Source of the DNA: an uncultured Flavobacteriales bacterium
Lineage (GTDB): Bacteria; Bacteroidota; Bacteroidia; Flavobacteriales; Schleiferiaceae
Direction: 5' to 3'
Assembly (NCBI GenBank): GCA_943846715.1
Contig: OX044356.1
Span: 394,029-458,028 of the forward strand
DNA: 64,000 nt
The translations under genes were made by a program, and so were the position numbers. Under the pieces are notes generated by a model. That model was not told the DNA's origin and did not search any database. It saw only the letters and a list, made by a program, of their open reading frames with translations. The first letter of the stretch is position 1, and each line of letters starts with the position of its first letter. This document shows, one piece after another, positions 6,909-64,000 of the stretch.

Positions 6909-8987
6909 ATGAATAAAACATTGACTCTAGCTCGCAAAGGTTTCCTTGCAATTTTCATGTTGCTCGGCACGTTGCTTCAGGCGCAGACACTTGACCTGGT
7001 TCAGCCCCCTAACCTGTCGGTATGTACCGGTGACTCCTTGAAAATCACCATGACCATTGGCAGCAATAATTTCAATGCGGGCAACCAATTCATCGTTTTG
7101 TTTGATGATGGGTTAACGACATCTTTTGATGTGACTGCCGCTGACACCCTAGCTATCGAGCGCTGGCAGAGCATCACCCCCAGTCCTGTAGGCACATCTG
7201 CAGATACCCTGAATGCCGGAGTGAAGTTTTTCTGGATCATTGTCCCCGCTGACATCACAAGCAACAATTTTTACTCATTGGCCGTGAGAAGCACCAACCC
7301 GAGTGGTATTTGGTCTGACACCATTCAAATGACAGTGAATGTTTCCCCGGAGTCATCCATTGATTCCATTCATGGAGGCTACAATAATTTGTACACGCCT
7401 TCCAATGATTGGGGCTTCTGTGAGGATGACACCATCACCCTTTATGCTGTCGCAGGCATGCAGACCTACCAATGGTACGCTGGTGGCGCACCCATTGCAG
7501 GTGAAGTCAATGACTCATTGAAGGTGTTTGCTACTGGCGATTACGCTGTTGAAGTCGGTTCAGGCAATTGCTCAACAATTTCTTCAGATACCACCATCAA
7601 TGCCTTTTCGCCATTCACCGACCTGACGCATAGCACGGTTGCAACCTTAACCGTTTTGGACAATGATCCCCAAATTGACAGTTTGCAGTTTTGTGACACA
7701 GATAGCATCACCTTAACAGGCCCGCCAGCTTTTACCCCTGGAACAGGTGTGAACTACCAGTGGTTGATGGATTCAGTGGACCTGTTTGGTCAAACCATTG
7801 TGGTGGCCATTGCAGGTGAAAAGAGCATGAGTTACTCCACCAATGTAGCGGGACGCTACAGCTTGGAGACCACCTGGTTACCTGGTGGTTGCGCGGACAC
7901 CTCATACACCGTAGAGCTTTTCATTGACACCGTTCCTGATGCAACCATTGAGAATGTGCCATGGCCTGGATTTGCTATTGCCTCGTTGAGTATCTGCCCA
8001 TCGGATTCGACCTTGTTGCAATCTGCAACCACTTCGGTCATGAATGATTGGGAATACCAGTGGCAAGTGCTTTACCCAGTATCCAGTGGTGTGTGGAAGG
8101 ATCTACCTGGTGAGGACGCTTACCAATTGACAGCTGACACCACCACAGCGCCTGGAACGGCACAATACCGGCTCTACATAACCAATGCGGCTTGTGAACA
8201 CTACACTGCTGCCATGCAAGTTGAATTGGTTCCTTTGCCGACTGTGCAAGTAGCTCCTTCAGATTCCCTGGCTGTATGTGCGGGAGACTCTTTATTGATT
8301 GGCGCGACAGGCAACGGCCTGACCTATTCATGGACATGGCCTGGCGGGAGCTATGCCGGAACGTCATTTTATGCAAAGGATGCAGGCATCTATGTGGTGG
8401 AAGCTATTGGCCTGAATGATTGTGTGAGCTATGACACTTTGGAATTGAGCCATGTCACCGTAACACCTGATGCGGGCCCTGACCAAACGGTCTTGCCTGG
8501 CGAGGTTGTTCAACTTGCTGGCAGTGGCGGCGAAAGCTTCTATTGGTATGCTGACAGGCCTGTGTATTTCAGTGATCCTTACAACCCCAATGCACAAACC
8601 AAACCCACCCAGGATACCACCATGTACATCCTTGAGGTGATGACGGACTTCGGTTGCTTTGGCACAGACACCATGATGGTGATTGTCTTTGACCCTTCCA
8701 TCTATGATGTGAACATTTCCCATGTCATGAACTTGATTTCCCCCAATGGCGATGGCATGAATGATGTCTTTGATTTATCAGAGGTTGTTCAGGCAGACTC
8801 ATGCGACTTGATTGTCTTTGATCGATGGGGATCCATTGTCTTTGAACAAGCACAGTACATCACCGGCTGGGATGGCATCAACCAAGGCGGTGCAGATTTA
8901 CCCAACGGCACGTACTACTACGTATTGATGTGTAATGATGTGGCCCGATTCCGAGGCGCAATCACCGTTGTAAGAAATATCCAGTAA
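6909..8987 (+). CDS. T9SS type-B sorting domain (gliding motility-associated C-terminal domain / CHU_C) surface protein, cargo A
   Basis: Signal peptide MNKTLTLARKGFLAIFMLLGTLLQAQ. Repeated Ig-like modules carry a 'C.GDS..L' motif (LSVCTGDSL, LQFCDTDSI, LSICPSDST, LAVCAGDSL). C-terminus: ISPNGDGMNDVFDL..FDRWGSIVFEQ..WDG..NGTYYYVL. Confidence 0.88.
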   Translation: MNKTLTLARKGFLAIFMLLGTLLQAQTLDLVQPPNLSVCTGDSLKITMTIGSNNFNAGNQFIVLFDDGLTTSFDVTAADTLAIERWQSITPSPVGTSADTLNAGVKFFWIIVPADITSNNFYSLAVRSTNPSGIWSDTIQMTVNVSPESSIDSIHGGYNNLYTPSNDWGFCEDDTITLYAVAGMQTYQWYAGGAPIAGEVNDSLKVFATGDYAVEVGSGNCSTISSDTTINAFSPFTDLTHSTVATLTVLDNDPQIDSLQFCDTDSITLTGPPAFTPGTGVNYQWLMDSVDLFGQTIVVAIAGEKSMSYSTNVAGRYSLETTWLPGGCADTSYTVELFIDTVPDATIENVPWPGFAIASLSICPSDSTLLQSATTSVMNDWEYQWQVLYPVSSGVWKDLPGEDAYQLTADTTTAPGTAQYRLYITNAACEHYTAAMQVELVPLPTVQVAPSDSLAVCAGDSLLIGATGNGLTYSWTWPGGSYAGTSFYAKDAGIYVVEAIGLNDCVSYDTLELSHVTVTPDAGPDQTVLPGEVVQLAGSGGESFYWYADRPVYFSDPYNPNAQTKPTQDTTMYILEVMTDFGCFGTDTMMVIVFDPSIYDVNISHVMNLISPNGDGMNDVFDLSEVVQADSCDLIVFDRWGSIVFEQAQYITGWDGINQGGADLPNGTYYYVLMCNDVARFRGAITVVRNIQ

Positions 8988-9006
8988 CAGCATACCTAAA
9001 GAAACC

Positions 9007-10479
9007 ATGAAAAAATCCTTACTCATCTCGGCTTGTTTGCTTTCGTTTACCACATTGGGTCAACAGCTGCCGATCTATAGCTCCTTTTTCTTTGCCCCTC
9101 AAATCAGCAACCCTGCACGCTCTGGCGCTTCGGGTTTCAGTGAGATGGTCACCATGCATCGTCAGCAATGGCAAGGCATGGAAGGCGCTCCCGAAACTTC
9201 AGCTTTGCTCTTCAATGGTGCATTAAACAAAGAACGTGTAGGTTACTCAGTGTATGCTTTCAACGATGTGACTGATATTGTTCACCGTGCAGGTATTTAT
9301 GGCAATTATGCCTACCATGTGCAGTTGGCTGAAAAGAGCTCATTGAGCTTTGGCCTTGGTTTTGGTTATGTGAGCAATTCCTTTGACATGGCTTCTGTTC
9401 GTGTGAAGGATGAAGGGGATCCCTTCTTGATCCCCGCCAACCAAAATGGCACCTTGGATCTGTCTTCAGGTGTGAATTTCAAAGCAGGTGATTTCCAAAT
9501 TGGTATCGCTATTCCGCAAATGTTGGCACCAACGATTGTTTACTCCAACAACTATGACACCGTGGTTGGTTACAAGCTGTTGCGTCATTACACGGCCAGA
9601 ACGCAGTACGATGTGCATATCCAGCGCGATCGGTTGATCCTTTCTCCTATTGTGGCCTTGCGTGCCACTGCAGGCATCAAGCCTCAGGTCGATGCGGGTC
9701 TGTTGTTCAACATGATTGAAATAGGCTACATAGGCGCTACCTATCGCTCAAACTTTGCAGCAACCGTCCAGGTCGGCATGCACTTGTCGCCAACATTGAC
9801 CGTTGGCTATGCACATGACTTCAGCACCAGTGACTATGCCTCCAGCCTTGGGATGTCTAATGAATTCATGCTGGGATACAGGTTTGGTGATGACAAAGGC
9901 AACAAGCGCCTGGAATCTGAAATCAAACGAATCAAGGACAAGCAACGCCGTGCGGAAGTAGAAGGTGAGAAATTCTTGAATGAAAAATTTGAAGAATTCA
10001 AGTCGGAAATGGAAAGCGGCCAGAAGGCTGAACTTGAAAAGCAAACGGAGGCGTTGAAGGAAGCCAGCATGCAATTGCAGCAGGCTGGTTCGCAAGGCGG
10101 TGGTGTTCAACAGAACAACAATGGCAACCAAGGAGGTTTCAATCAATTGACTGACATGAATCAGTCAGCGGCTGATCCCGTTGTCAACAATGGAAGCATC
10201 ACTGGCTACAGCCAATCCAATTATGCCAATAATGTGGTGGCTGGTTCACGCGGTTATTACGTCACAGTCGGGGTGTATGGTCAGATGGCCAACGCTGAGC
10301 GCATGGCAACCAATTTGAGCAAGCGAGGCATTGCATCACGCATTTTCCAGGACCGCAACAACAATATGTACTATGTGTTCTTGATGAAGTTCGCCAATTA
10401 CGATGCTGCTGATCAAGCGAAGTCTACAGGGCTTAATGGCCAGTACAATGGCCGTCTGTGGATTAAAATTGTCAAATAA
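9007..10479 (+). CDS. PorP/SprF family T9SS outer-membrane protein fused to a coiled-coil, a Q/N/G linker and a C-terminal SPOR-like domain
   Basis: Signal peptide, then QQLPIYSSFFF..NPA and HRQQWQGMEGAPETS, which are PorP/SprF hallmarks (aa 1 to ~295). Charged coiled segment at nt ~9886-10090, Q/N/G-rich linker at 10090-10250. The last 75 aa read GYYVTVGVYGQMANAERMATNLSKRGI..MYYVFLMKF.., which is SPOR-like. Confidence 0.85.
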   Translation: MKKSLLISACLLSFTTLGQQLPIYSSFFFAPQISNPARSGASGFSEMVTMHRQQWQGMEGAPETSALLFNGALNKERVGYSVYAFNDVTDIVHRAGIYGNYAYHVQLAEKSSLSFGLGFGYVSNSFDMASVRVKDEGDPFLIPANQNGTLDLSSGVNFKAGDFQIGIAIPQMLAPTIVYSNNYDTVVGYKLLRHYTARTQYDVHIQRDRLILSPIVALRATAGIKPQVDAGLLFNMIEIGYIGATYRSNFAATVQVGMHLSPTLTVGYAHDFSTSDYASSLGMSNEFMLGYRFGDDKGNKRLESEIKRIKDKQRRAEVEGEKFLNEKFEEFKSEMESGQKAELEKQTEALKEASMQLQQAGSQGGGVQQNNNGNQGGFNQLTDMNQSAADPVVNNGSITGYSQSNYANNVVAGSRGYYVTVGVYGQMANAERMATNLSKRGIASRIFQDRNNNMYYVFLMKFANYDAADQAKSTGLNGQYNGRLWIKIVK

Positions 10480-54598: not shown

Positions 54599-54632
54599 AA
54601 CAACAAAGGCGCCCTAGGGCGCCTTTGTTGTT
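54599..54632. terminator. bidirectional terminator, perfect 16-bp stem
   Basis: AACAACAAAGGCGCCC, TA, GGGCGCCTTTGTTGTT. It lies between convergent genes and overlaps the TAA stop of the 54631..57813 gene. Confidence 0.8.
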
Positions 54633-57600
54633 ATTGCAAATTCAAGGACTGGCTCAGGCCAGACTCCAGGTAGGGACCGCCGGCATCCACATTGGCGCGC
54701 ATCAATGCGTCAATGCCTTGGACAATCTCAAGGAGTTCTTTCTCAATGGATGGCAACCGAGCTGTGACAATGTCCAATTGTTTGACCATGGTTCCTGTCG
54801 GATTGCTTCGCATGCCGTAACTGCCCCATGTCGCCATGGAAAGGCGATCACTTAAGCTTGTTGCTGCTTCAGTTTCACGCTTAGTAAGTGTTTCGTTCCC
54901 ATACAATTCAATGGCCATGTTGAGTAAGTCAGTCTCTAGCCCTTCTAGCTTGAGTGCATCACTTAGGCTGGCAGAAGGGCCATGGGTCAAGGCGGCTTGC
55001 AACTGCTTGACACGATCCTTTTGTGAAGCAAAGGTTTTGGTCAATCGATTGAAGCGGCGGTTGGTGGCATTGGCCCGATCTTGGAATGCATGGATAATGG
55101 TTGGGTCTCCACTGCCATTGAGGTTGTTTAAATGACGCACAGCAAATGATACAGGTTCTGTCAATGTGTCAAATTGCCCGGAAGCATAGGCCACAAGCTG
55201 AACGCGGTAGCCTCCCTCATTGACAAAGTAGGCTCCGTGTTTGGGGTTGCCTTGTCGACTGACCTTGCCATCCCATGTGATGCGATGCATGCCTTTGCTG
55301 TAGCTGGTTTTAAGTCGGCGAAGAGGCTTTCCATTGTTGTTGCTGATCGCCAACAAAAGGTAATGATCCTTGTCGCGGTCTTCTGACAGCAAATCATCAT
55401 AGCTTGGGAAGGTGATGTTGTCCCCTTGGTCTTTTTCAGCAGATTGTCTGAGAGCTTTCAATGACTCTGGGGCTTCTTTGATGTGGTAAGTGAAGGTCAC
55501 GCCAACAGGTGGGTTGTCCGCCATGTAGTAGCTGGCACCCATGAATCCGGGAGGTCCATAGCCAATAGGGTGAGCTTCATGGTAGAGGAGACCGTCTTTG
55601 ATGTCAAAGACATGCGCTGATTTCTCCATGACACCTTGGGAGACTTCCCTTAGGGCTGAGTAGTCATCCAAGACATAAAAACCTCTGCCAAATGTTGCCA
55701 GAATCAAGTCATTTTCACGCCGTTGGATGTCGATGTCACGGACGGCAACAGTGGGAAGACCCTTATCCAAGGCTTTCCAGTTTTTGCCACCATCAGTGCT
55801 GACGTGCAAGCCAAACTCCGTGCCCGCAAAAAGTAAATTTGGATCTACATGGTCCTCTGCAAGGCTGTAAACGGACCCTCTTTCAGGTAAGCCTTCAACG
55901 ATAGGTTTCCAGGATTTACCTTGGTTGTTGCTGACCAAGATGTAGGGAGCGAAGTCGCCCTGCTTGTGGTTGTTGAATACCGCATAGACCCGATTGGCAT
56001 CGTGCAATGATGTTTTGATGTCATTGACATAGGTGTTGGCAGGGATGCCAGGGAAGGACTTCAGGGTTTTCCAGTTGCCGCCATCGTTATGGCTGACATG
56101 AATCAAACCATCGTCTGTGCCGGCATAAAGCAAGCCTGCGCTCACCGATGATTCGTTCAAGGCAACGATGTTGCCATAGATGGATGTGCTGCGATGCTTG
56201 GCTACTGCGTCGACGCTCCAGAGCTTGCCCATAACTGGCAGGGTGTTTCGGTCAATCTGCTGACTTAGATCGTCAGATATCACGGCCCAGTTGTTCCCCC
56301 TGTCAGTGCTCTTGAAGACGACATTGGCAGCAAAGTAAAGGGTCTTGTGATCATGTGGGCTGATGAGTAAGGGTGCATCCCAATTGAAGCGGTAGGGTTT
56401 TTCATCCACACCTTCTACTGGTTTGATGGCCACACCTTCGCCGCTGAGTCGATCGTAGCGTTGAAGCCAACCATACTGTGCTTGTGCGTAGATGGTGTTG
56501 GGGTCTTCTGGGTCTATTTGCGACTCAAACCCATCACCGGTCTGTGTCACAAACCAATCGGAATTGATGATGCCTCGGTCATTGATTGTCCTGCTAGGTC
56601 CGCCCAAGGAGAAGTTGTCTTGCGTCCCACCGTAAATATTGTAAAACGGCAAGGCGTTGTCGACGGTGACGCGGTAAAATTGTGTGATGGGTAAATTGGG
56701 CTTGTAATGCCAGTTGACACCATGGTCCCATGTTTCATACAAACCACCATCACTGCCAACAATCAAATGCAAAGGCTGCAAGGGGTCAATCCAGCATACA
56801 TGGTTGTCGACATGCTTGCCTTTTTCTCCCAATCGTTTGAATGTTGATCCACCATCGTTGCTCCAATGCATGTAGGTGTCCATGCTGTATACGACATCCG
56901 CATCATGGGGAGACACAACGAGCTCCACATAGTAATTGCCGCTGGTGTTGTGATCATTGCGCTTGCTAAAGGTCAATCCCCGGTTGTTGCTCCGGTAGGT
57001 TCCATGGCCTTCGATCATCAAGTAGAGAACGTCAGGGTTGCTGGGCGCAATGGCTAATGCCAATCGACCTTTGTCATCCGACGGGAGGCCTCCATTCAGT
57101 TCTTCCCAATTCTCACCGCCATCTTTTGACAGGTAAAGGCCAGATTCAGGCCCGCCTGACAGATAGGTGAAGACATGCCGTCTGCGTTGATGGGCTGTTG
57201 CATACAGGATGTTTGGGTTGCGTGGGTCCAGGTGAACTTCATTGAACCCTGTGTGCTCTGACACATGCAAGACCCGTTTCCAGGATTCGCCCCCATCGGT
57301 GGTTTTGTAGATGCCGCGGTCTCCGCCGGATGACCACAGAGGGCCATAGGCTGCTGCCCATACAATGTCTGAGTTGTCAGGGTGCACGGCAATCATGCCA
57401 ATGTGTTCAGAGGAACCCAGGCCCATGTTTTTGAATGACGCACCGCCATCAACAGATTTGTAGATGCCATCACCATAGGCCACGGACCGTTGGTTGTTGT
57501 TTTCGCCAGTGCCGACCCAGATGGTGTTGCTGTTGGACGGGTCAATGGTGACGCAGCCAATGCTGTAGGATCCTTCATTATCAAATAGTGAGGAAAAGGT

Positions 57601-57813
57601 CAAGCCATGGTTGACGGTCTTCCACACGCCGCCAGAGGCGGTTGCCACAAACCAAACATCATGGTTGTTGGGGTCCACGGCCATGTCAGCCACCCGACCA
57701 GAGGTAGTTGCTGGCCCCAAGGAGCGAAAACTGAGTGCAGAATAATCTTGTGCATTGATGCCTGGAACGATAAGCAGGATCAGTAGAGAGGATAACAGGT
57801 TTTTCATAGCCAC
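54631..57813 (-). CDS. large exported sortilin/VPS10-like BNR (Asp-box) repeat protein
   Basis: 1060 aa with a signal peptide. Eight Asp-boxes: SVDGGASF, TTDGGESW, SKDGGENW, SNDGGSTF, STDRGNNW, HNDGGNW, SNNQGKSW, STDGGKNW. The architecture suggests tandem beta-propellers. Confidence 0.8.
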   Translation of the reverse strand: MAMKNLLSSLLILLIVPGINAQDYSALSFRSLGPATTSGRVADMAVDPNNHDVWFVATASGGVWKTVNHGLTFSSLFDNEGSYSIGCVTIDPSNSNTIWVGTGENNNQRSVAYGDGIYKSVDGGASFKNMGLGSSEHIGMIAVHPDNSDIVWAAAYGPLWSSGGDRGIYKTTDGGESWKRVLHVSEHTGFNEVHLDPRNPNILYATAHQRRRHVFTYLSGGPESGLYLSKDGGENWEELNGGLPSDDKGRLALAIAPSNPDVLYLMIEGHGTYRSNNRGLTFSKRNDHNTSGNYYVELVVSPHDADVVYSMDTYMHWSNDGGSTFKRLGEKGKHVDNHVCWIDPLQPLHLIVGSDGGLYETWDHGVNWHYKPNLPITQFYRVTVDNALPFYNIYGGTQDNFSLGGPSRTINDRGIINSDWFVTQTGDGFESQIDPEDPNTIYAQAQYGWLQRYDRLSGEGVAIKPVEGVDEKPYRFNWDAPLLISPHDHKTLYFAANVVFKSTDRGNNWAVISDDLSQQIDRNTLPVMGKLWSVDAVAKHRSTSIYGNIVALNESSVSAGLLYAGTDDGLIHVSHNDGGNWKTLKSFPGIPANTYVNDIKTSLHDANRVYAVFNNHKQGDFAPYILVSNNQGKSWKPIVEGLPERGSVYSLAEDHVDPNLLFAGTEFGLHVSTDGGKNWKALDKGLPTVAVRDIDIQRRENDLILATFGRGFYVLDDYSALREVSQGVMEKSAHVFDIKDGLLYHEAHPIGYGPPGFMGASYYMADNPPVGVTFTYHIKEAPESLKALRQSAEKDQGDNITFPSYDDLLSEDRDKDHYLLLAISNNNGKPLRRLKTSYSKGMHRITWDGKVSRQGNPKHGAYFVNEGGYRVQLVAYASGQFDTLTEPVSFAVRHLNNLNGSGDPTIIHAFQDRANATNRRFNRLTKTFASQKDRVKQLQAALTHGPSASLSDALKLEGLETDLLNMAIELYGNETLTKRETEAATSLSDRLSMATWGSYGMRSNPTGTMVKQLDIVTARLPSIEKELLEIVQGIDALMRANVDAGGPYLESGLSQSLNLQ

Positions 57814-57956: not shown

Positions 57957-59396
57957 TCATTCCGAATCAACGATTTCCATTTTATCTTCTGATAGCCCAA
58001 TAATGACACTGACTGATGCGTCGCCAGTTAGGTTGAGCATGGTGCGCACCATGTCGATGATTCGATCTACAGGGAAAATTATAGCGATCCAAGCAGGGTT
58101 AAGACCTACACTTTCTAAAACAACAATCAACATAATTAATCCTGCACTTGGGACAGAGGCTGCACCAATGCTGGCAAGAGTTGCAGTGAATATGATTGTT
58201 ACTTGCTGAATGATTGTCAGGTCAATCAAATGAAATTGCGCCATGAAAATCACAGCAACACTCTGGTACAGAGCAGTGCCATCCATGTTTACCGTTGCAC
58301 CTACGGGTAGTACAAATGATCCAACTTCTTCGTCAACACCTAAATTATCTCTAACACAATCCATGGTTACGGGCAAAGTAGCAGCCGTTGATGAGGTTGA
58401 AAATGCTAGTATTTGAGCTGGTCTTATTCCTTTAGAAAAGTATTTCCAAGCTTTGATGAAACCGATTTTTGTTTTTCTGTGAATGAGTGCAGCTACAATT
58501 GCAGGATAAAAAACAAAAATCATTAGAAGCAATGCAAAAATGGTGACCATCGTGTAAGCGCCTAAGGCTTTGAATATCTCAATAAGCCTGCTGGGTTCAT
58601 CACCAGCCATTTCAGCCAATTTCCCAGCGAGAAGGGCAAAGACAAAGACGGGTGCTCCTTTCATGATTATATCAACCATTTTTATAAAAACGTGAGTACC
58701 GCCATCAATGAACCCGACCATGTAAGTGGTTCTTTCTTTTGGTAACGCTACTAAGGTTACCCCGAAAAAAAGAGAGAAAAAGATAATTTGTAGCATCAAG
58801 CTGCCATTGAATGATACAAATATGTTTGACGGAACCATGTCAACAAAAAACTGAAGTGGCCCCGTTTTTTTGGATGAGGATGCTGCAGCAGCAATTTTCT
58901 TATTTAGCTCTTCATTGCTGCGCTGCTCATCTAAGTTTTGCCTGGCATCGCTGAGGTATGAGCTGAATTGAGAGTCATCAGTAAGTCGGATGTCGTCAAA
59001 GAATTCAACACCATCTGTTTCATTGACCCAAATTTCATAGGATAGCCTGTTTACATTGAGCTGCTCAGTAGCAGCTTGATGTCCTGGCTTAAATGTATTG
59101 GCAAAAAACAACCCAACACAACAAGCAATAACCGTCGACGCAATGTAAAGCCCAAGCGTTTTAATCCCCATTCTACCTAGGGTTGCAGTGTCATTCAATC
59201 CACTGATTCCAGAAATGATACTGAATAAGACAAGGGGAATAGCAATGAGTTTCAATAGGCGGATAAATATCTCACCAATAGGAGCAATCCAGTCTATGGT
59301 AAAGCTGCTCCATCCCATTGATGAACTAATGAGGGCCCATAAAATGCCCAATATTAATCCGATTATGATTTGAATGGCTAAAGGAGGCTTCTTCAT
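57957..59396 (-). CDS. dicarboxylate/amino acid:cation symporter (DAACS/GltP family)
   Basis: 479 aa: ..FSTSSTAATLP.., ..GATVNMDGTALY.., ..VDR..DM.RT..N..GD... It has an extended loop after TM3. Confidence 0.88.
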   Translation of the reverse strand: MKKPPLAIQIIIGLILGILWALISSSMGWSSFTIDWIAPIGEIFIRLLKLIAIPLVLFSIISGISGLNDTATLGRMGIKTLGLYIASTVIACCVGLFFANTFKPGHQAATEQLNVNRLSYEIWVNETDGVEFFDDIRLTDDSQFSSYLSDARQNLDEQRSNEELNKKIAAAASSSKKTGPLQFFVDMVPSNIFVSFNGSLMLQIIFFSLFFGVTLVALPKERTTYMVGFIDGGTHVFIKMVDIIMKGAPVFVFALLAGKLAEMAGDEPSRLIEIFKALGAYTMVTIFALLLMIFVFYPAIVAALIHRKTKIGFIKAWKYFSKGIRPAQILAFSTSSTAATLPVTMDCVRDNLGVDEEVGSFVLPVGATVNMDGTALYQSVAVIFMAQFHLIDLTIIQQVTIIFTATLASIGAASVPSAGLIMLIVVLESVGLNPAWIAIIFPVDRIIDMVRTMLNLTGDASVSVIIGLSEDKMEIVDSE

Positions 59397-59613
59397 CAGA
59401 GGTATTTTTTAGATTATTTTACCTGTTTTGGTCTTCGTCTTAAAGAGGATTCAAATATTCACTTTTTTTCTCGCAGTTCAGAGAATTATTATTTGTTTAC
59501 CATCCAGACGCCTTAGCCCAGAGTAATAATCCCCAAAAAAATTCAAAATCAGATGTTTGCCAAACATGATTGGTTGATTTCGCTGGTCCTTTGAACAGTG
59601 CCCTGCCATACTC

Positions 59614-60393
59614 CTAAATGACCCGTGGCTTGAATAGTAATTTTCTCATTCCAACAAAGAGCACAATGAAAACGGAATAAATCATGAAAAAAGGAATTAC
59701 AAAGGCTTGTAGTTCACAAGCCAACATAACTGCCATGATTAGTAATTGAAAACCCAAACCGTATATAGAAATCAGCGTCATAAACCATTTTGGAAATGGC
59801 ATACTGTCACTAGCGTTCTTGTCCATGTGGTACATGATTTTATCAAATGATATATATAACACATCATAAATCTTGTAAAAGATATTCACCATCTGCTGGC
59901 TCTCCCCTTTGAGAGCCTTCGGTGCAGAATCCTCGAAAATTCTACTGGTAGAATCTCCATTCACAGAATTTCGTAAAATGACATAATAGTAGTTGTATAC
60001 GGTTCCTTGAAGTTGAATTGCAAAGAAAGCAATCAACATATGGGCTAAAGGACCTCCAGTGATATGATTAAAAGCTAGTAAAAAACAAAAGTTCAATAGG
60101 ATGTCTGCTATCGAATCGTAGAAACGTCCAACATATGAGGGTGTTTTTCTCAAACGAGATAACTCTCCATCAGCGGCATCTATAATGGATTTCAATAGGA
60201 TAAATATGGCTGCTGTGATGTGATATCCATTGAGCATGAGTACAATGGCAATGAGTCCAGCTATAATAAACATGGTTGTAACATGAATTGGAGTAAAACA
60301 CGTATGTTGAAGTTGTTTAGCGATCCAATGACCAGAAGAGCGCCCATAGTCAGATAGGTCTAAAAACTGATATTCTTTGGGAAGTTTTGCCAT
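59614..60393 (-). CDS. CDP-alcohol phosphatidyltransferase family protein
   Basis: DAADGELSRLRKTPSYVGRFYDSIAD fits D-x2-D-G-x2-(A/S)-R-x8-G-x3-D-x3-D. Polytopic, 259 aa, very AT-rich. Confidence 0.82.
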   Translation of the reverse strand: MAKLPKEYQFLDLSDYGRSSGHWIAKQLQHTCFTPIHVTTMFIIAGLIAIVLMLNGYHITAAIFILLKSIIDAADGELSRLRKTPSYVGRFYDSIADILLNFCFLLAFNHITGGPLAHMLIAFFAIQLQGTVYNYYYVILRNSVNGDSTSRIFEDSAPKALKGESQQMVNIFYKIYDVLYISFDKIMYHMDKNASDSMPFPKWFMTLISIYGLGFQLLIMAVMLACELQAFVIPFFMIYSVFIVLFVGMRKLLFKPRVI

Positions 60394-60841
60394 TCAGATG
60401 TTGCGTGATCAAATTAATTATAAACACCCAAAAGTAGTTTAGATGGTGGAGTTTTATTTCGTTCAGTTCTTCTCAAGAAAAGCTACCCTTAAAACGTCAA
60501 AGGTTATAATTAAGCATTAGAGTAGATACGTTGGAGGTTGAGGGCTCGCCAGATTTGGGATGGTACATATAATTTACCGATGAGCCAAAAAAATAAGTAA
60601 GCTATTTGTTTCGTGAAAGTGTTATTACTAAGGATTCTCTCGATCAAAACAAAAAGTGTCTTGTTTTTTCAATTACTTGAAATGAGACAACCCAGCCTTC
60701 GTGACCATACTTGTTCATTACAGTTTCCATTTTTTTATTGGAAGGTTACTCAACCCCAACCCATCCAATGGCTGCAATGTGCCGTTAAGAAATAAGGTTA
60801 AATCCTGAGATTCATCTCCATATAGTCTAGTCCGATAAGGT

Positions 60842-61741
60842 TTATATCAAATCATCCAAGGCATGATTCAGCGTTTGGTATTGGTATTCAAACCCTTCGT
60901 TTTTCCATAAAAGGGACGAACAGCGCGTGCTCATCAATGCTAGTTCAGCCATAGGCCCCAGAACAGAATACAGTACAAAGGCGGGAATTGAGGGAAGGAA
61001 GTAGGGGCGATTTATTTTGCTTGCTAAGACTTGGCTAAATTCTCTGTTTGTAACACTCTCACTTCCAACCCCTAGAAAAATACCTTGGTATTTGCTGTTC
61101 TCTGCTAAGCATAGGAATTGACGTGCTAAATCGGAAATATGAATCCATGGCATCCATTGTTTTCCGTTACCTAGAGGGCTCCCAAGTCCTAATTTAAAAA
61201 ATGGAAGCAATGTGTCTAAAACGCCTCCGCCTTTGCCAAGTACGATTCCAATTCGTAGGCAGCAAACTCTCATGCCTAGATTTTCTGATTTAAATATTTC
61301 TTGCTCCCATTGGTTTATGACTGTCGCTAAGAACCCATCACCGCCAGGGTCATCTTCGCTGTAAACTTTGTTTTGATCATTAGGGTATAGACCCACTGCA
61401 GAAGCGCATATAAGACTTTTTGGTCGTTGATCTACAGGGAGGGAGGAGATGGCCTCACGCAACACTCTGGTGCTCTGTATTCGGCTTTCTAGGATCTCTT
61501 TTTTATAACGCTTAGTCCATCGTTTAGCAATCGTAGCTCCGGCTAAATGTATGATTGTGTCAACATCTTTTAAAGCATTCATATCTAGCTCATTTTTCTT
61601 TGGATTCCAAAGAAATGTTTGAGGGTTAGAAGACGGTTTAGTGCTCAAGTTGTTGACCTTGTATCCACGTAATGATAAGTGCCTCATTATTTCTGAACCG
61701 ATCATTCCGCTACCGCCTGTCAATAAAAATTGTTTTGTCAT
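60842..61741 (-). CDS. NAD-dependent epimerase family protein (YfcH/TIGR01777-like, with DUF1731-type C-terminus)
   Basis: 299 aa: ..LLTGGSGMIGS.. Rossmann motif, with the overall YfcH-like length and C-terminus. Confidence 0.8.
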   Translation of the reverse strand: MTKQFLLTGGSGMIGSEIMRHLSLRGYKVNNLSTKPSSNPQTFLWNPKKNELDMNALKDVDTIIHLAGATIAKRWTKRYKKEILESRIQSTRVLREAISSLPVDQRPKSLICASAVGLYPNDQNKVYSEDDPGGDGFLATVINQWEQEIFKSENLGMRVCCLRIGIVLGKGGGVLDTLLPFFKLGLGSPLGNGKQWMPWIHISDLARQFLCLAENSKYQGIFLGVGSESVTNREFSQVLASKINRPYFLPSIPAFVLYSVLGPMAELALMSTRCSSLLWKNEGFEYQYQTLNHALDDLI

Positions 61742-61782: not shown

Positions 61783-63153
61783 TTAAACCCTAAAATTTAT
61801 CCCAATTACCAGTTGGTGCTGCAAGGCATTCACTGTCCAAAGGTCACTGTTTATTGGGTTGTAGATGCGTGCCTGCCGGTAGTTGCTCACCAAGGCTAGA
61901 TGAATGCTAGCTTGATCGCTTCGGTACCCCAACCCAACACTTCCTCTTTGAAACCCTGAGTGGTCTTTGAACTGTGTGCCGGCATTGCTTTGTTGATAGC
62001 CAAAGCGGTAGGCTAGGGGCCCTTTTCGCCATTCCATGCCAACACGAACCCCTTCCACGACGACCAAGTCATCCAGCAAGTCTTGCCCGATGCCAATAGC
62101 TGAAATAGGTGAAATGATGGTTTGCTCAGGCAAAGATTTTCGATGGTACTCCACTGCAATGAACCCCTTTGATTGGAACTTTTTTGCCAGAGAAAATGCC
62201 GCAGAAACACCAGGAAGGTTCTCCCATGTTTGTTTGTCAGTCAGTTCAAATGGGGGGTCATTGTTTGTTGTTCTAGCCGTCATGCGGTACCTGCTATACC
62301 AGTCAAGTGAAGCAACGTTGGGCATGGAAATTCGCATCCCTGCTTGCAAGTCTAGCGGCAGTCGAAGAATCACACCTAAGCTGCTTGAAGCGCCAGTTAT
62401 GCTCATGGAATCACTCTGGCTGTAGGTGTATCCAGAAGTGTAGCCACTGAAGCCATCTTCGTCGACGACAAGGGCTTCAAAGGCAGATGCATGCGAATAA
62501 CTCCGACTAAGCCCTAGAGATAGTTGTGGCGTTCTCAGGCTCGCCCCTGCAATCAGATGGTTGCTTTGAAAACCCTGCTTAATGAGTGTCACGTGTTGAG
62601 AAGGGAGACCTTGAGATAAATCAAAGAACTCATTATTGTCCTCATCGTACTCCAGTACGTAGCCCTGGTAAGCTGTATAGGCGCCAAGCAGTCCAGCTGC
62701 AAGCAATTCATCTGGTCCATTGATGCCTTGAGATGCGTCGAGCCACTGGTCCACCATGCGTTCATTTGGATTGCTTTCAATGGATTGCCATTGATTGCCG
62801 GACCATGAGTCATTTTGAAAAGCAAAGAAACCATTGAGTTGGTACCCCTTAGCTACAGGCATTACATGCACGTAGGAAATATTGGGAATTTGAATCCCAG
62901 TTGGATCCTGACGCGTCATCAATCCACCTTGCCAATCAATTTGCAGCTCACTTGAACGGTAAGTACCAATACCTGCGGGGTTGTCAGATGCTGCGCTGGC
63001 ATCGTTACCGAGGGCTCCCATGGCTCCACCAAGGGCCATGTAACGCGCACTGCCCATTCCGCCATCGCTTGAAAGCATGTTGAACACCACAGAAGACTGG
63101 GCCTGAGCTGCGACACTAAAAGCTAGAGCTCCAATAAACAAGATCTTTTTCAT
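61783..63153 (-). CDS. putative outer-membrane beta-barrel protein (FadL/PorV-like N-terminal 'NPAG' motif), function unknown
   Basis: Signal peptide MKKILFIGALAFSVAAQAQ, then ..ALGGAMGALGNDASAASDNPAGIG... It shows alternating beta-strand patterns and an aromatic-rich C-terminal strand (..LVIGINFRV). Confidence 0.5.
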   Translation of the reverse strand: MKKILFIGALAFSVAAQAQSSVVFNMLSSDGGMGSARYMALGGAMGALGNDASAASDNPAGIGTYRSSELQIDWQGGLMTRQDPTGIQIPNISYVHVMPVAKGYQLNGFFAFQNDSWSGNQWQSIESNPNERMVDQWLDASQGINGPDELLAAGLLGAYTAYQGYVLEYDEDNNEFFDLSQGLPSQHVTLIKQGFQSNHLIAGASLRTPQLSLGLSRSYSHASAFEALVVDEDGFSGYTSGYTYSQSDSMSITGASSSLGVILRLPLDLQAGMRISMPNVASLDWYSRYRMTARTTNNDPPFELTDKQTWENLPGVSAAFSLAKKFQSKGFIAVEYHRKSLPEQTIISPISAIGIGQDLLDDLVVVEGVRVGMEWRKGPLAYRFGYQQSNAGTQFKDHSGFQRGSVGLGYRSDQASIHLALVSNYRQARIYNPINSDLWTVNALQHQLVIGINFRV

Positions 63154-64000
63154 CGTCTGCTGTTGGATGAAGACCTGCTGTTGCTGCTGGATGAAGACCT
63201 GCTGTTGCTGCTGGATGAAGACCTGCTGTTGCTGCTCGATGATGACCGGCTGTTGCTGCTGGATGAAGACCGGCTGTAGCTACTCGATGGACGACTGGTA
63301 GATTGTGAACTGCGATTGTTCGATGATCGCTTAGTAGACTGTGAGCTCGGTTTACTGGAACGCGTTTGAGTGGATCTGGTTTTCGCACTTGATTGCTTTG
63401 GAGAAGCTACCCGTGTAGGTTTTGATGATTGACGTTGATAGCTACTTGTTGCCTGACTCCGATTAGATTGAGGCCTGGTAGATTGAGCTTCTTGGCTACT
63501 TTGTTGGCTTCGAGGCCTTCTGGCTTGAATTTCCGCATCGCTGGATCTGCGAGAGCTGTTGATCACAGGTGCCCTTGATTCAGAAACAACCTGTTTCCTT
63601 CCGCCGTTAGGACGGGTCACAGCAGGAGCCCTTCGGTTCGTTGTAGGGCCTTGTAAACTTTGTCTCCGAACCCTGCTTGCGGGGCTATCTAAGCTTGTTG
63701 AATTTGAGCCAGACCAGCCCGAGTTGTTGTAGCCGTAGTTGTTGTATCCGTTGTAGCCGTAGTTGTTGTATCCGTTGTAGCCGTAGTTGTTGTATCCGTT
63801 GTAGCCGTAGTTGTTGTATCCGTTGTAGCCGTAGTTGTTGCATCCGTTGTAACCGAAGTTGTTACCATAGTTGTAGCCGTAACCGAAATGGTATCCATAG
63901 TTCGAGTGTCCGTTGTTGTATGGGTAATAAGGCCAAGACATATAGCTGTTTTGGTGGTTGAACCCTCTGCTGTAGCCCCATGGGCTCCAAATGTTTTGAC
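63150..64000 (-). CDS. extreme low-complexity protein: Tyr/Asn/Gly-repeat N-region plus Ser/Arg/Gln/Lys-rich C-region (5' end may lie beyond the window)
   Basis: The first in-window ATG is at 63941, but the frame stays open to nt 64000 (QNIWSPWGYSRGFNHQNSY-MSWPYYPY..). This is the only frame open across the non-repeat centre (63290-63720). Its stop overlaps the barrel gene start (ATGA at 63150-63153). Confidence 0.6.
   Translation of the reverse strand, partial: QNIWSPWGYSRGFNHQNSYMSWPYYPYNNGHSNYGYHFGYGYNYGNNFGYNGCNNYGYNGYNNYGYNGYNNYGYNGYNNYGYNGYNNYGYNNSGWSGSNSTSLDSPASRVRRQSLQGPTTNRRAPAVTRPNGGRKQVVSESRAPVINSSRRSSDAEIQARRPRSQQSSQEAQSTRPQSNRSQATSSYQRQSSKPTRVASPKQSSAKTRSTQTRSSKPSSQSTKRSSNNRSSQSTSRPSSSYSRSSSSSNSRSSSSSNSRSSSSSNSRSSSSSNSRSSSNSRR
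63153..63290 (-). repeat. 24-nt in-frame tandem repeat encoding (SSSSSNSR)n
   Basis: Three identical plus-strand units GGATGAAGACCTGCTGTTGCTGCT at 63165-63188, 63189-63212 and 63213-63236. Degenerate copies extend to about 63284. Confidence 0.95.
63726..63869 (-). repeat. 24-nt in-frame tandem repeat encoding (YNGYNNYG)n
   Basis: Four identical plus-strand units GTTGTAGCCGTAGTTGTTGTATCC at 63726, 63750, 63774 and 63798. A fifth unit has one mismatch (63822-63845) and a sixth is degenerate. Confidence 0.95.

Follow-up and report, generated by a model that had tools for sequence, protein, structure and literature searches.

What is an open reading frame (ORF) that encodes little but tyrosine, asparagine and glycine followed by a run of serine and arginine, and what is its relation to the outer-membrane beta-barrel gene whose start codon its own stop codon overlaps? 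This question is raised by the end of a 64,000-nucleotide (nt) stretch of contig OX044356.1 (here, the window), assembled from an uncultured Flavobacteriales bacterium of the Schleiferiaceae, where the two genes lie together on the minus strand. We refer to the low-complexity gene and its product as X and to its partner as the barrel. It is well supported that X and the barrel are one copy of an ancient two-gene module of the Bacteroidota core genome; the existence and the conservation of this module are solid, and what we propose for its mechanism is a hypothesis.

A preliminary description of the window had placed the stop codon of X at 63150, with the frame still open at the window end and the true N-terminus outside it. 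The ORF list and translation agreed, with the frame open up to 63998, and the start was found on the source contig. An exact look-up of the barrel protein retrieved a 1.66-Mb metagenome contig (L001) to which positions 61783-64000 of the window are identical from L001 position 9154, and on which the full gene X occupies 8856-10004 and encodes 382 amino acids (aa) with the N-terminus MKRYILLITTLILASSC. In window coordinates the gene starts at ~64298, 298 nt past the window end, and its first ~99 codons (~64001-64298) encode the MKRYILLITTLILASSC signal and most of an acidic head that includes the motif YDEGIYNWDS. The signal, MKRYILLITTLILASS-C17, is of the lipoprotein type, and X is probably lipid-anchored at Cys17; lipobox calls for this and all other X proteins were made by inspection of the pattern alone, without a dedicated predictor. 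The head (residues 18-74) has a net charge of -14 and an isoelectric point (pI) of 4.1, and residues 28-35, YDEGIYNW, are the local version of a head motif found across the family. It is followed by a core composed of 24% Y, 21% N and 16% G with 3% aliphatic residues, which reads ...SWPYYPYNNGHSNYGYHFGYGYNYGNNFGYNGCNNYG(YNGYNNYG)x4YNNSGW... inside the window, and then by a tail with a net charge of +31 and a pI of 12.0 (S 37%, R 16%) that ends in (SSSSSNSR)x4-SSSNSRR-COOH. The earlier account of X, a Y/N/G region followed by a Ser/Arg-rich tail and, in composition, an aromatic and polar core joined to a basic tail, therefore holds, with the tail at about 177 aa. X is thus an exported protein practically without ordinary globular sequence and with short conserved motifs at both ends.

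X matched no described family, as had been suggested: neither its fragment in the window nor any of 12 full-length X proteins had a match in Pfam or NCBIfam, and an exact look-up did not find the X proteins in the cluster tables. Close public copies carry only the name 'hypothetical protein' and come from metagenome-assembled genomes (MAGs) of Schleiferiaceae or Flavobacteriales, and the X head (residues 1-151) used as a query returned three near-identical partial proteins, out of only 5 word-index candidates. A C-terminal domain of the type IX secretion system (T9SS), a possibility raised in the preliminary description, was present on none of the X proteins scanned with Pfam and NCBIfam. Their C-terminus is a Ser/Gly/Arg tail ending RR, and a reading of X as T9SS cargo was rejected. 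A scan for promoters and terminators gave nothing that exceeded shuffled expectation, and scans of the 64-kb window for tRNA and tmRNA genes, and for Rfam families at the gathering threshold, were empty.

A low-complexity ORF of this kind could be no gene at all, merely an open frame made by the tandem-repeat DNA upstream of the barrel. Several further frames over the repeats are also open for 40-94 codons, on the same or the other strand (63116-63388 on the minus strand, 63677-63961 on the plus strand, 63689-63898 on the minus strand, and others), with products such as ...ATAGLHPAATAG... and ...CSRSCCIRCSRSCC...; metagenome contigs often end within the X repeats; and one public assembly calls a protein (P0010) that is a frameshifted hybrid of two frames. 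The contig breaks and the frameshift are read as assembly problems, and the other-frame ORFs are side effects of repeat DNA, not genes. Selection on X was measured by the Nei-Gojobori method against its orthologue in L003, a species-level relative whose barrel is 95% identical. The ratio of nonsynonymous to synonymous substitution rates (dN/dS) was 0.21 for X overall, with 0.18 for the head, 0.18 for the Y/N/G part and 0.24 for the tail, indicating purifying selection in the X frame in all three regions; the barrel gave 0.13 in the same comparison. All seven insertions or deletions between the two X genes (3, 3, 9, 6, 21, 21 and 48 nt) were multiples of 3, and in six full-length alleles and four contig-truncated copies the repeat numbers differed while the frame was kept in every one, the Y/N/G run spanning 44-70 aa across the six full-length alleles and the S..NSR units numbering 3-7 across the ten alleles and copies of close relatives. 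The question of frame conservation that the preliminary description had raised is thereby answered in favor of a gene. The signal peptide, head motif and C-terminus are, moreover, kept across a phylum, and a counterpart in Flavobacterium johnsoniae, assigned by synteny, has been found by mass spectrometry. The spurious-ORF reading is ruled out by the dN/dS value, the in-frame indels and the conserved ends, and we assign it a negligible probability.

Near-identical strains (L014, L015, L018, L028 and L003) differed from the window in the copy number of both peptide repeats, always in-frame. This repeat variation is a length polymorphism of an envelope protein in natural populations.

The stop codon of X overlaps the start codon of the barrel gene in an ATGA, confirming an observation from which a functional pairing with the 456-aa, signal-peptide-bearing barrel had been proposed. 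The two genes are co-transcribed, and the overlap is compatible with translational coupling. The pairing was followed through other genomes. A genome scan with the barrel recovered one locus only, that of the 95% relative L003, and a metagenome scan with a five-sequence barrel alignment recovered 505 confirmed relatives, from which 80 loci were kept. In each of these a script located the barrel ORF and the ORF immediately upstream, which was scored as X-like if more than 60% of it consisted of S/G/N/Y/R/T/Q/K/P/W, its last 120 residues were basic and its C-terminus was Arg-rich. An X-like ORF lay directly upstream of the barrel in 72 of the 76 loci with at least 700 nt of upstream sequence, and in 75 on inspection, since three of the four ORFs that the script had failed were X-like when examined (ending KRGGK, or with a tail charge of +5). 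Among 62 full-length distinct pairs, the gap between X and the barrel ranged from -8 to +177 nt, with the same 4-nt overlap in 11. The pairing therefore looks functional, and it is strongly conserved well beyond the window.

Distant X proteins share hardly any alignable sequence with the window X but follow its plan, in which a lipoprotein signal precedes the head, the core and a Ser/Thr/Arg/Gly tail. From 67 distinct homologues we derived our own motif definitions: DD(G/I/L/V)Y(Y/F) 5-20 residues past the signal peptide in most of them, a Y..R(I/L).RF(H/Y) motif (Y..RIRRFH type) that recurs ~80-155 residues into the protein, and a C-terminal consensus ...[S/G][S/G][G/S/R]RR, in which the last residue is R in 62 of the 67 and the penultimate residue is R in 55, preceded by G or S. 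An acidic head, an aromatic core and a basic tail were found in all six members compared, and the cores were 35-60% aromatic per 40-aa block in all compared members of the family (examples from relatives are GWGWGMNLSWGWGGSFGWG..., YYDPWYTNTYWYDYNPYNWGY... and MYDPFYDPFYDPF...). Some members have His/Tyr-rich cores, and the tail in Chryseobacterium is a literal RGG/FRGG tail. The window X conforms to this definition in its signal, head motif, Y/N/G core, basic tail ending SRR and overlap with the barrel. By our pattern a lipobox was present in 43 of 62 full-length X proteins, in the canonical form L-[AGV]-S-C in the relatives that have one, and absent in 19, most of which bear a type-I signal on inspection.

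The members with a lipobox form a first subgroup, usually adjoining the proline-tRNA ligase gene proS. A second subgroup (L041, L043, L051, L054, L056, L058, L066, L067, L074, L077, and, with other neighbors, L068, L078, L081, L083 and L092) replaces the lipobox with a signal peptide of the ordinary kind and carries an additional conserved segment, EYAERIRRFHNP...DWNVYVDGSYAYVTPTWTNPYW. Its members include contigs from human-gut metagenomes (L078, L083, L092).

The chromosomal setting of the module is conserved as well. In loci of distant homologues, in which the barrel is 24-31% identical, proS on the opposite strand is followed by an ORF of 340-524 aa without a Pfam match and then by the barrel. 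This proS-X-barrel order was seen in uncultured marine relatives (L004-L006, of which L004 is an exception in that the contig end leaves only the X tail before the barrel), in Chryseobacterium oranimense (L008/L012), in a Bacteroidales MAG (L009/L010) and in Thermophagus (L011), and 36 of the 62 full-length pairs are oriented divergently from proS. The second subgroup lies between prmA and prfC or adjoins an EF-G-like gene. The proS or prmA/prfC setting places the module in the core genome and not in a polysaccharide-utilization locus or a mobile island.

In L056, the divergent upstream gene of 279 aa is prmA and the downstream gene of 525 aa is prfC, and ORFs sized like these two flank the pair in most of ten loci of the second subgroup. 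L078 has an EF-G-like gene upstream instead of prmA.

The barrel, whose signal peptide is MKKILFIGALAFSVAAQA/Q, is a divergent FadL-family member and thus, unlike X, belongs to a described family. Searches of Pfam and NCBIfam with the barrel gave sub-threshold N-terminal matches only (UPF0164 and the PorV/PorQ family NF033709) and no match to PF03349 (Toluene_X) at E<=1; homologues of the barrel at E 1e-13 to 5e-4 carry PF03349. A profile of the barrel group matched TbuX (9e-12) and a P. aeruginosa FadL homologue (2e-9) in the PDB, and also CymD and TodX. A phmmer search with the barrel returned 1411 relatives, including a tight subfamily at 29-34% identity that comes wholly from Bacteroidota, Schleiferiaceae or Cryomorphaceae MAGs; its closest members (P0012, P0015, P0017) were not returned by a third homologue search, which limited the depth of the alignment. 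AlphaFold2 models reached a mean confidence (pLDDT) of 54 with 9 sequences, too poor to use, and of 61.5 (predicted TM-score, pTM, 0.59) with 19. With the second model, the best Foldseek matches were CymD (9e-11), FadL, TodX and the P. aeruginosa FadL homologue (TM 0.45-0.64), at an identity of only about 10-14% to FadL-type structures in the structural alignments, and BamG chains from the three solved Bacteroidota BAM complexes (F. johnsoniae, B. thetaiotaomicron and P. gingivalis) were also among the matches (TMt 0.58-0.64). Confidence in this model is moderate, and the number of strands was not counted exactly.

The most conserved stretch of the barrel is the N-terminal hatch, GSARYMALGGA..ALGND.SA..DNPAG, which contains an NPA motif. 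In all four barrel-group alignments N58 and P59 do not vary, and A60 varies little or not at all. The role of NPA in FadL is established, and PDB entries 2r4l, 2r4n and 2r4o, which are NPA mutants, appear among the Foldseek results. Predicted strands 3 and 4 are separated by a helical insertion of 65 residues, which is kept within the subfamily (..VD.WL..S.G..P..LL..GL...Y.AYQ.Y.LEYD, with conserved columns W137, G154 and A161). By FadL topology the modeled insertion should be extracellular, and it is a candidate site for binding a partner or a ligand; its placement is tentative because pLDDT is low there.

Two identities of the barrel were rejected. The preliminary description had named FadL and PorV among families to be compared with the barrel, and of these FadL was supported (TbuX, CymD, TodX) and PorV was not. 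The barrel scored 20 bits against NF033709, over residues 35-71 only, and its relatives 30-38 bits, so that it is not PorV/PorQ because its score falls far under the cut-off of 90. PorV and PorQ are like it in being protein-binding FadL-like barrels of Bacteroidota with weak N-terminal similarity, and differ in the score and in that X has no T9SS C-terminal domain. The barrel is also not a BamG orthologue, because there was no sequence-level match to solved BamG: no solved BamG chain was matched by the family profile at E<=1, nor by Bacteroidales and Chryseobacterium members singly at E<=0.01, and the likeness is at the fold level only. Public names in the barrel group (P0018, P0169, P0173-P0175, P0232, P0017) are untested and inconsistent, and include 'hemin receptor', 'long-subunit fatty acid transport protein', 'conjugal transfer protein TraF' and 'hypothetical protein'. 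The features of the locus are collected in Table 1.

Table 1 Features of the X/barrel locus in window coordinates
Feature	Position	Strand	Remarks
Gene X, in-window part	63150..64000	-	Residues about 100-382 of 382; exported, intrinsically disordered protein
X aromatic/Asn/Gly low-complexity core	63684..64000, on to ~64076 outside window	-	Residues ~75-205
X basic Ser/Arg/Gln/Pro/Thr tail	63153..63683	-	Residues 206-382, about 177 aa
24-nt tandem repeat encoding (YNGYNNYG)n	63726..63863	-	Tandem Repeats Finder (TRF): 5.8 copies, 97% match
24-nt tandem repeat encoding (SSSSSNSR)n	63158..63289	-	TRF: 5.5 copies, 91% match
ATGA overlap, X stop / barrel start	63150..63153	-	From ORF coordinates
Divergent FadL/OmpP1/TodX-family outer-membrane beta-barrel	61783..63153	-	456 aa; type-I signal peptide, residues 1-18
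N58-P59-A60, NPA motif of FadL-type N-terminal hatch	62974..62982	-	Conserved in four alignments
Long insertion, predicted strands 3-4	62611..62808	-	Residues ~116-181; three short helices predicted; pLDDT low
yfcH-type NAD epimerase	60842-61741	-	Between barrel and BNR/Sortilin gene
CDP-alcohol phosphatidyltransferase	59614-60393	-	Between barrel and BNR/Sortilin gene
Dicarboxylate/amino-acid:cation symporter	57957-59396	-	Between barrel and BNR/Sortilin gene
Secreted BNR/Sortilin-VPS10-repeat protein	54631..57813	-	~1060 aa; type-I signal peptide; candidate third component

A counterpart of the module was found in a study of TamL in F. johnsoniae (PMC12045153 and its preprint), in which Fjoh_4939 (proS) is followed by Fjoh_4940 (UniProt A5FA28), an SPII lipoprotein, and Fjoh_4941, an OmpP1/FadL/TodX barrel. 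Fjoh_4940 and Fjoh_4941 are taken as the module members of F. johnsoniae because the gene order is identical. In that study both proteins were detected by mass spectrometry and Fjoh_4940 was classed as a 'periplasm-facing lipoprotein, function unknown'; on depletion of TamL, the lipoprotein rose 2.6-fold and the barrel 5.6-fold in membranes, and in vesicles Fjoh_4941 stood at 0.4-fold, Fjoh_4940 was unreported and most integral outer-membrane proteins fell. On the proximity of the two genes the authors remarked only that it 'might indicate a functional link', and this passing remark is the sole mention of the module in the literature searched. Three other leads were rejected: the tandem genes pep25/lbp26 of F. 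collinsii, which are orthologues of Fjoh_0352/0353 and unrelated to the pair; a Riemerella biofilm screen, likewise unrelated; and the BSAP-1 receptor, a FadL-family protein of B. fragilis, to which no link could be made.

The side of the outer membrane on which X resides was judged by the rule, given in PMC12578637, that at least two acidic residues among the six after the lipid Cys direct surface export. Only the clade of the window fits this rule, with the two acidic residues of C-AMTQDE, and in most X members the stretch contains at most one acidic residue (for example C-SSSNNL, C-GAQMGG, C-SSGLYV and C-STGNEI). We favor a periplasmic location for X across the family because most members are without the surface-export signal and Fjoh_4940 is classed as periplasm-facing.

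A FadL-type barrel of Bacteroidota with a dedicated partner protein is a kind of system that is already known. According to two reports (PMC12611786, PMC12578637), the Bacteroidota beta-barrel assembly machinery (BAM) contains a FadL-family barrel, BamG, which transports nothing and instead holds BamH, a lipoprotein of the cell surface that lays its lipidated N-terminal tail in a groove of BamG; the paralogues BamG2 and BamH2 are neighboring genes; PorV is cited as a further protein-binding FadL homologue; and PorQ holds PorZ while PorV holds T9SS cargo. BamG-BamH resembles our pair in that a 14-strand FadL-family barrel docks a lipoprotein and is not a transporter, in that what the barrel binds is the lipoprotein's N-terminal tail, and in its phylum-wide spread and adjacent BamG2/BamH2 genes. 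It differs in that BamH is folded and carbohydrate-binding-like, whereas X is disordered, of low complexity and sometimes not a lipoprotein.

By this analogy, we consider that X and the barrel may form an outer-membrane complex in which the barrel docks X and the X tail binds anionic envelope material, a reading to which we give a rough probability of 45%. The complex would be stoichiometric, with the barrel as the membrane dock, as in BamG-BamH, PorQ-PorZ and PorV with its cargo, and the conserved head motif near the signal peptide or lipid anchor would mediate the docking. The aromatic core and the polycationic tail would reach out from the outer membrane, most likely into the periplasm, where the core may self-associate and the tail may bind peptidoglycan, phospholipid head groups or lipopolysaccharide (LPS). 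The module would then serve the cohesion or homeostasis of the envelope and not the uptake of a specific nutrient; the core-genome setting, the response to TamL depletion and the retention of the pair with the cell are weak pointers to such a general envelope role.

A number of points weigh against this docking model. The complex, its topology and its ligand are all things that we infer, and the barrel model on which the comparison of folds draws is of moderate confidence (pLDDT 61.5). X of the window clade, by its C-AMTQDE, could be surface-exposed, and lipid anchoring is not essential to function, because about a third of X members are not lipoproteins. Since the barrel keeps the hatch and NPA of true FadL transporters, a transport role is possible. 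From F. johnsoniae, the drop of Fjoh_4941 in vesicles is not specific to the pair, because most integral outer-membrane proteins fell, and it is from synteny that we take Fjoh_4940 as a member of the X family.

The surface-export signal of the window clade bears directly on a different possibility, put forward in the preliminary description, that the barrel is an outer-membrane conduit or assembly site through which unfolded X is threaded to the surface, in the manner of CsgA through CsgG or FapC through FapF. At the surface the core would form an amyloid- or coacervate-like coat and the tail would stick to LPS, capsule, extracellular DNA or surfaces, making X a matrix protein or adhesin. X is fully disordered and would need no unfolding, its conserved N-terminal motif could target it, the linkage of the two genes is strictly one to one, and its Y/G/N/R/W composition resembles that of adhesive and condensate-forming proteins. 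The partners of other Bacteroidota FadL-type barrels, namely BamH, PorZ and T9SS cargo, sit on the surface. Curli (CsgA/CsgB with CsgG/CsgF) and Fap (FapC with FapF) also offer the likeness of a self-associating low-complexity protein rich in Asn, Gly and aromatic residues beside a dedicated outer-membrane channel, and of an N-terminal targeting segment. They share no homology with the pair, however, and X, for which a surface location is putative, differs in its long polycationic tail and its usual lipid anchor. Moreover, the hatch of a FadL-type barrel closes its lumen, no barrel of this type is known to let polypeptides through, and neither CsgG nor FapF was among the 50 best Foldseek matches, the top of which were FadL-family barrels and porins. 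The export signal is missing in most X members, the F. johnsoniae counterpart, which was found in membrane fractions, has been assigned to the periplasm-facing class, and the core-genome setting and a phylum-wide spread from gut anaerobes to marine plankton suit a housekeeping function over a niche adhesin. We consider export of X through the barrel unlikely.

The retained hatch with its invariant NPA leads to another alternative, in which the barrel would carry a hydrophobic substrate and X would be an accessory whose aromatic core captures cargo or hands it over on one side of the membrane. FadL, TodX, TbuX and CymD have the same fold and a mature length of ~440 residues in common with the barrel, the barrel profile comes closer to TbuX, TodX and CymD than it does to either BamG or PorV, and the best structural matches are CymD, FadL and TodX. 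Both proteins rise on depletion of TamL, which is an outer-membrane lipid homeostasis factor, and the His/Tyr-rich cores of some X members would also fit. The barrel nevertheless differs from these transporters in that its gene is always preceded by that of a partner, a feature not shared by classical FadL genes, and in being unlinked to catabolic genes: none of the loci examined showed linkage of the pair to fad, aromatic-degradation or haem-uptake genes. To our knowledge, characterized FadL transporters work without a partner protein. A polycationic tail of 180-250 residues has no obvious role in moving hydrophobic cargo, and the names 'hemin receptor' and 'fatty acid transport protein' in the barrel group are automatic annotations. 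A transporter with an accessory protein is in our view as improbable as an exporter.

The BamG chains among the Foldseek matches open the further possibility that the pair is a BamG/BamH paralogue, like BamG2/BamH2, acting at the BAM. The barrel model fits BamG chains about as well as FadL (TMt 0.58-0.64), the BamG2/BamH2 genes are adjacent, and the X core is rich in aromatic-x-aromatic patterns of the kind that, we infer, would resemble unfolded outer-membrane proteins. This is countered by the missing sequence-level match to solved BamG chains and by the folded, two-domain structure of BamH, as against a disordered X. In F. johnsoniae, BamG is Fjoh_1412 and BamH is Fjoh_0823, genes other than Fjoh_4941 and Fjoh_4940, and no link of X or the barrel to BamA is in evidence. 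In the available text on BAM pull-downs, BamA, D, G, H, M and P (with BamP4) are named for F. johnsoniae and BamA, D and G-K for B. thetaiotaomicron and P. gingivalis, with no further subunits. A role at the BAM is accordingly a very improbable explanation of the pair.

Returning to the docking model, its material side could be taken further. FUS, hnRNPA1 and mussel foot protein 3 join a Tyr/Gly/Asn/Ser aromatic segment to an Arg-rich segment, and X resembles them in composition, a likeness that extends to the RGG/FRGG tails of the Chryseobacterium homologues. There is no homology, X is an exported bacterial envelope protein and the likeness is compositional only. Even so, X might represent a new class of phylum-wide FUS-like or mussel-adhesive-like envelope protein that sits on its own FadL-type barrel and forms a condensate, a gel or an amyloid-like meshwork, which we regard as doubtful. 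Under this proposal X would be either a periplasmic tether or spacer between outer membrane and cell wall that replaces Braun's lipoprotein (Lpp), or a cohesive surface coat, and variation in repeat number would tune its length or stickiness. Lpp is a functional analogy only, as a lipoprotein anchored in the outer membrane that touches the cell wall with a conserved basic C-terminus. X and the barrel appear to be retained with the cell, and are likened to Lpp in this, because they are depleted or absent in F. johnsoniae vesicles. Lpp differs in being a short helical trimer attached covalently through its C-terminal Lys, whereas X, a long disordered chain with Arg-Arg at its end, is partnered by a barrel.

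A further gene may belong to the module in part of its range. Of 65 loci with sufficient sequence downstream of the barrel, 21, all in a Flavobacteriales-type branch, have a BNR/Sortilin gene there on the strand of the barrel, and in the 15 of these that are outside the window's own clade the gene adjoins the barrel (from overlap to ~0.7 kb). It is missing at this position in Chryseobacterium, Bacteroidales and Thermophagus, and its product may be a clade-specific third component. In the window three genes (57957-61741; Table 1) intervene between it and the barrel, and we interpret these three as a lineage-specific insertion because they are absent here in the distant relatives L004 and L005.

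Some other observations on the neighborhood are recorded here. The closeness of a lipid-synthesis gene to a FadL-type barrel could have a meaning or none. The ~448 nt that separate the phosphatidyltransferase gene from the epimerase gene (60394-60841) contain no ORF of at least 60 aa on the gene strand and no Rfam match. OmpA-domain proteins are encoded just past proS in L009/L010 (33-1928, minus strand) and in L008 (1866-3176, minus strand), one a TPR/PD40/OmpA protein with a PorE-type likeness and the other a DUF937-OmpA protein; they are not in the contig of the window, and their presence may be coincidence.

Recent work has shown that Bacteroidota of the gut, the mouth, soil and the sea build an outer membrane unlike that of E. 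coli, in which FadL-type barrels have been recruited as docks (BamG, PorV, PorQ). The X/barrel pair appears as a further module of this kind, conserved as widely as these three and placed among core translation genes. The module and above all the X family are new to Pfam, NCBIfam and, bar the one remark, the literature that we searched, and a phylum-wide conserved low-complexity envelope protein that combines aromatic residues with arginine is unusual in bacteria. F. johnsoniae is genetically tractable, and the question can be tested directly there with Fjoh_4940 and Fjoh_4941. Should the pair turn out to act as an envelope tether, as a gel in the periplasm or as a coat on the surface, it would supply a missing piece in the account of how Bacteroidota, which lack Braun's lipoprotein, hold their envelope together, and it would provide a natural bacterial case of an aromatic-plus-arginine low-complexity material working outside the cytoplasm.

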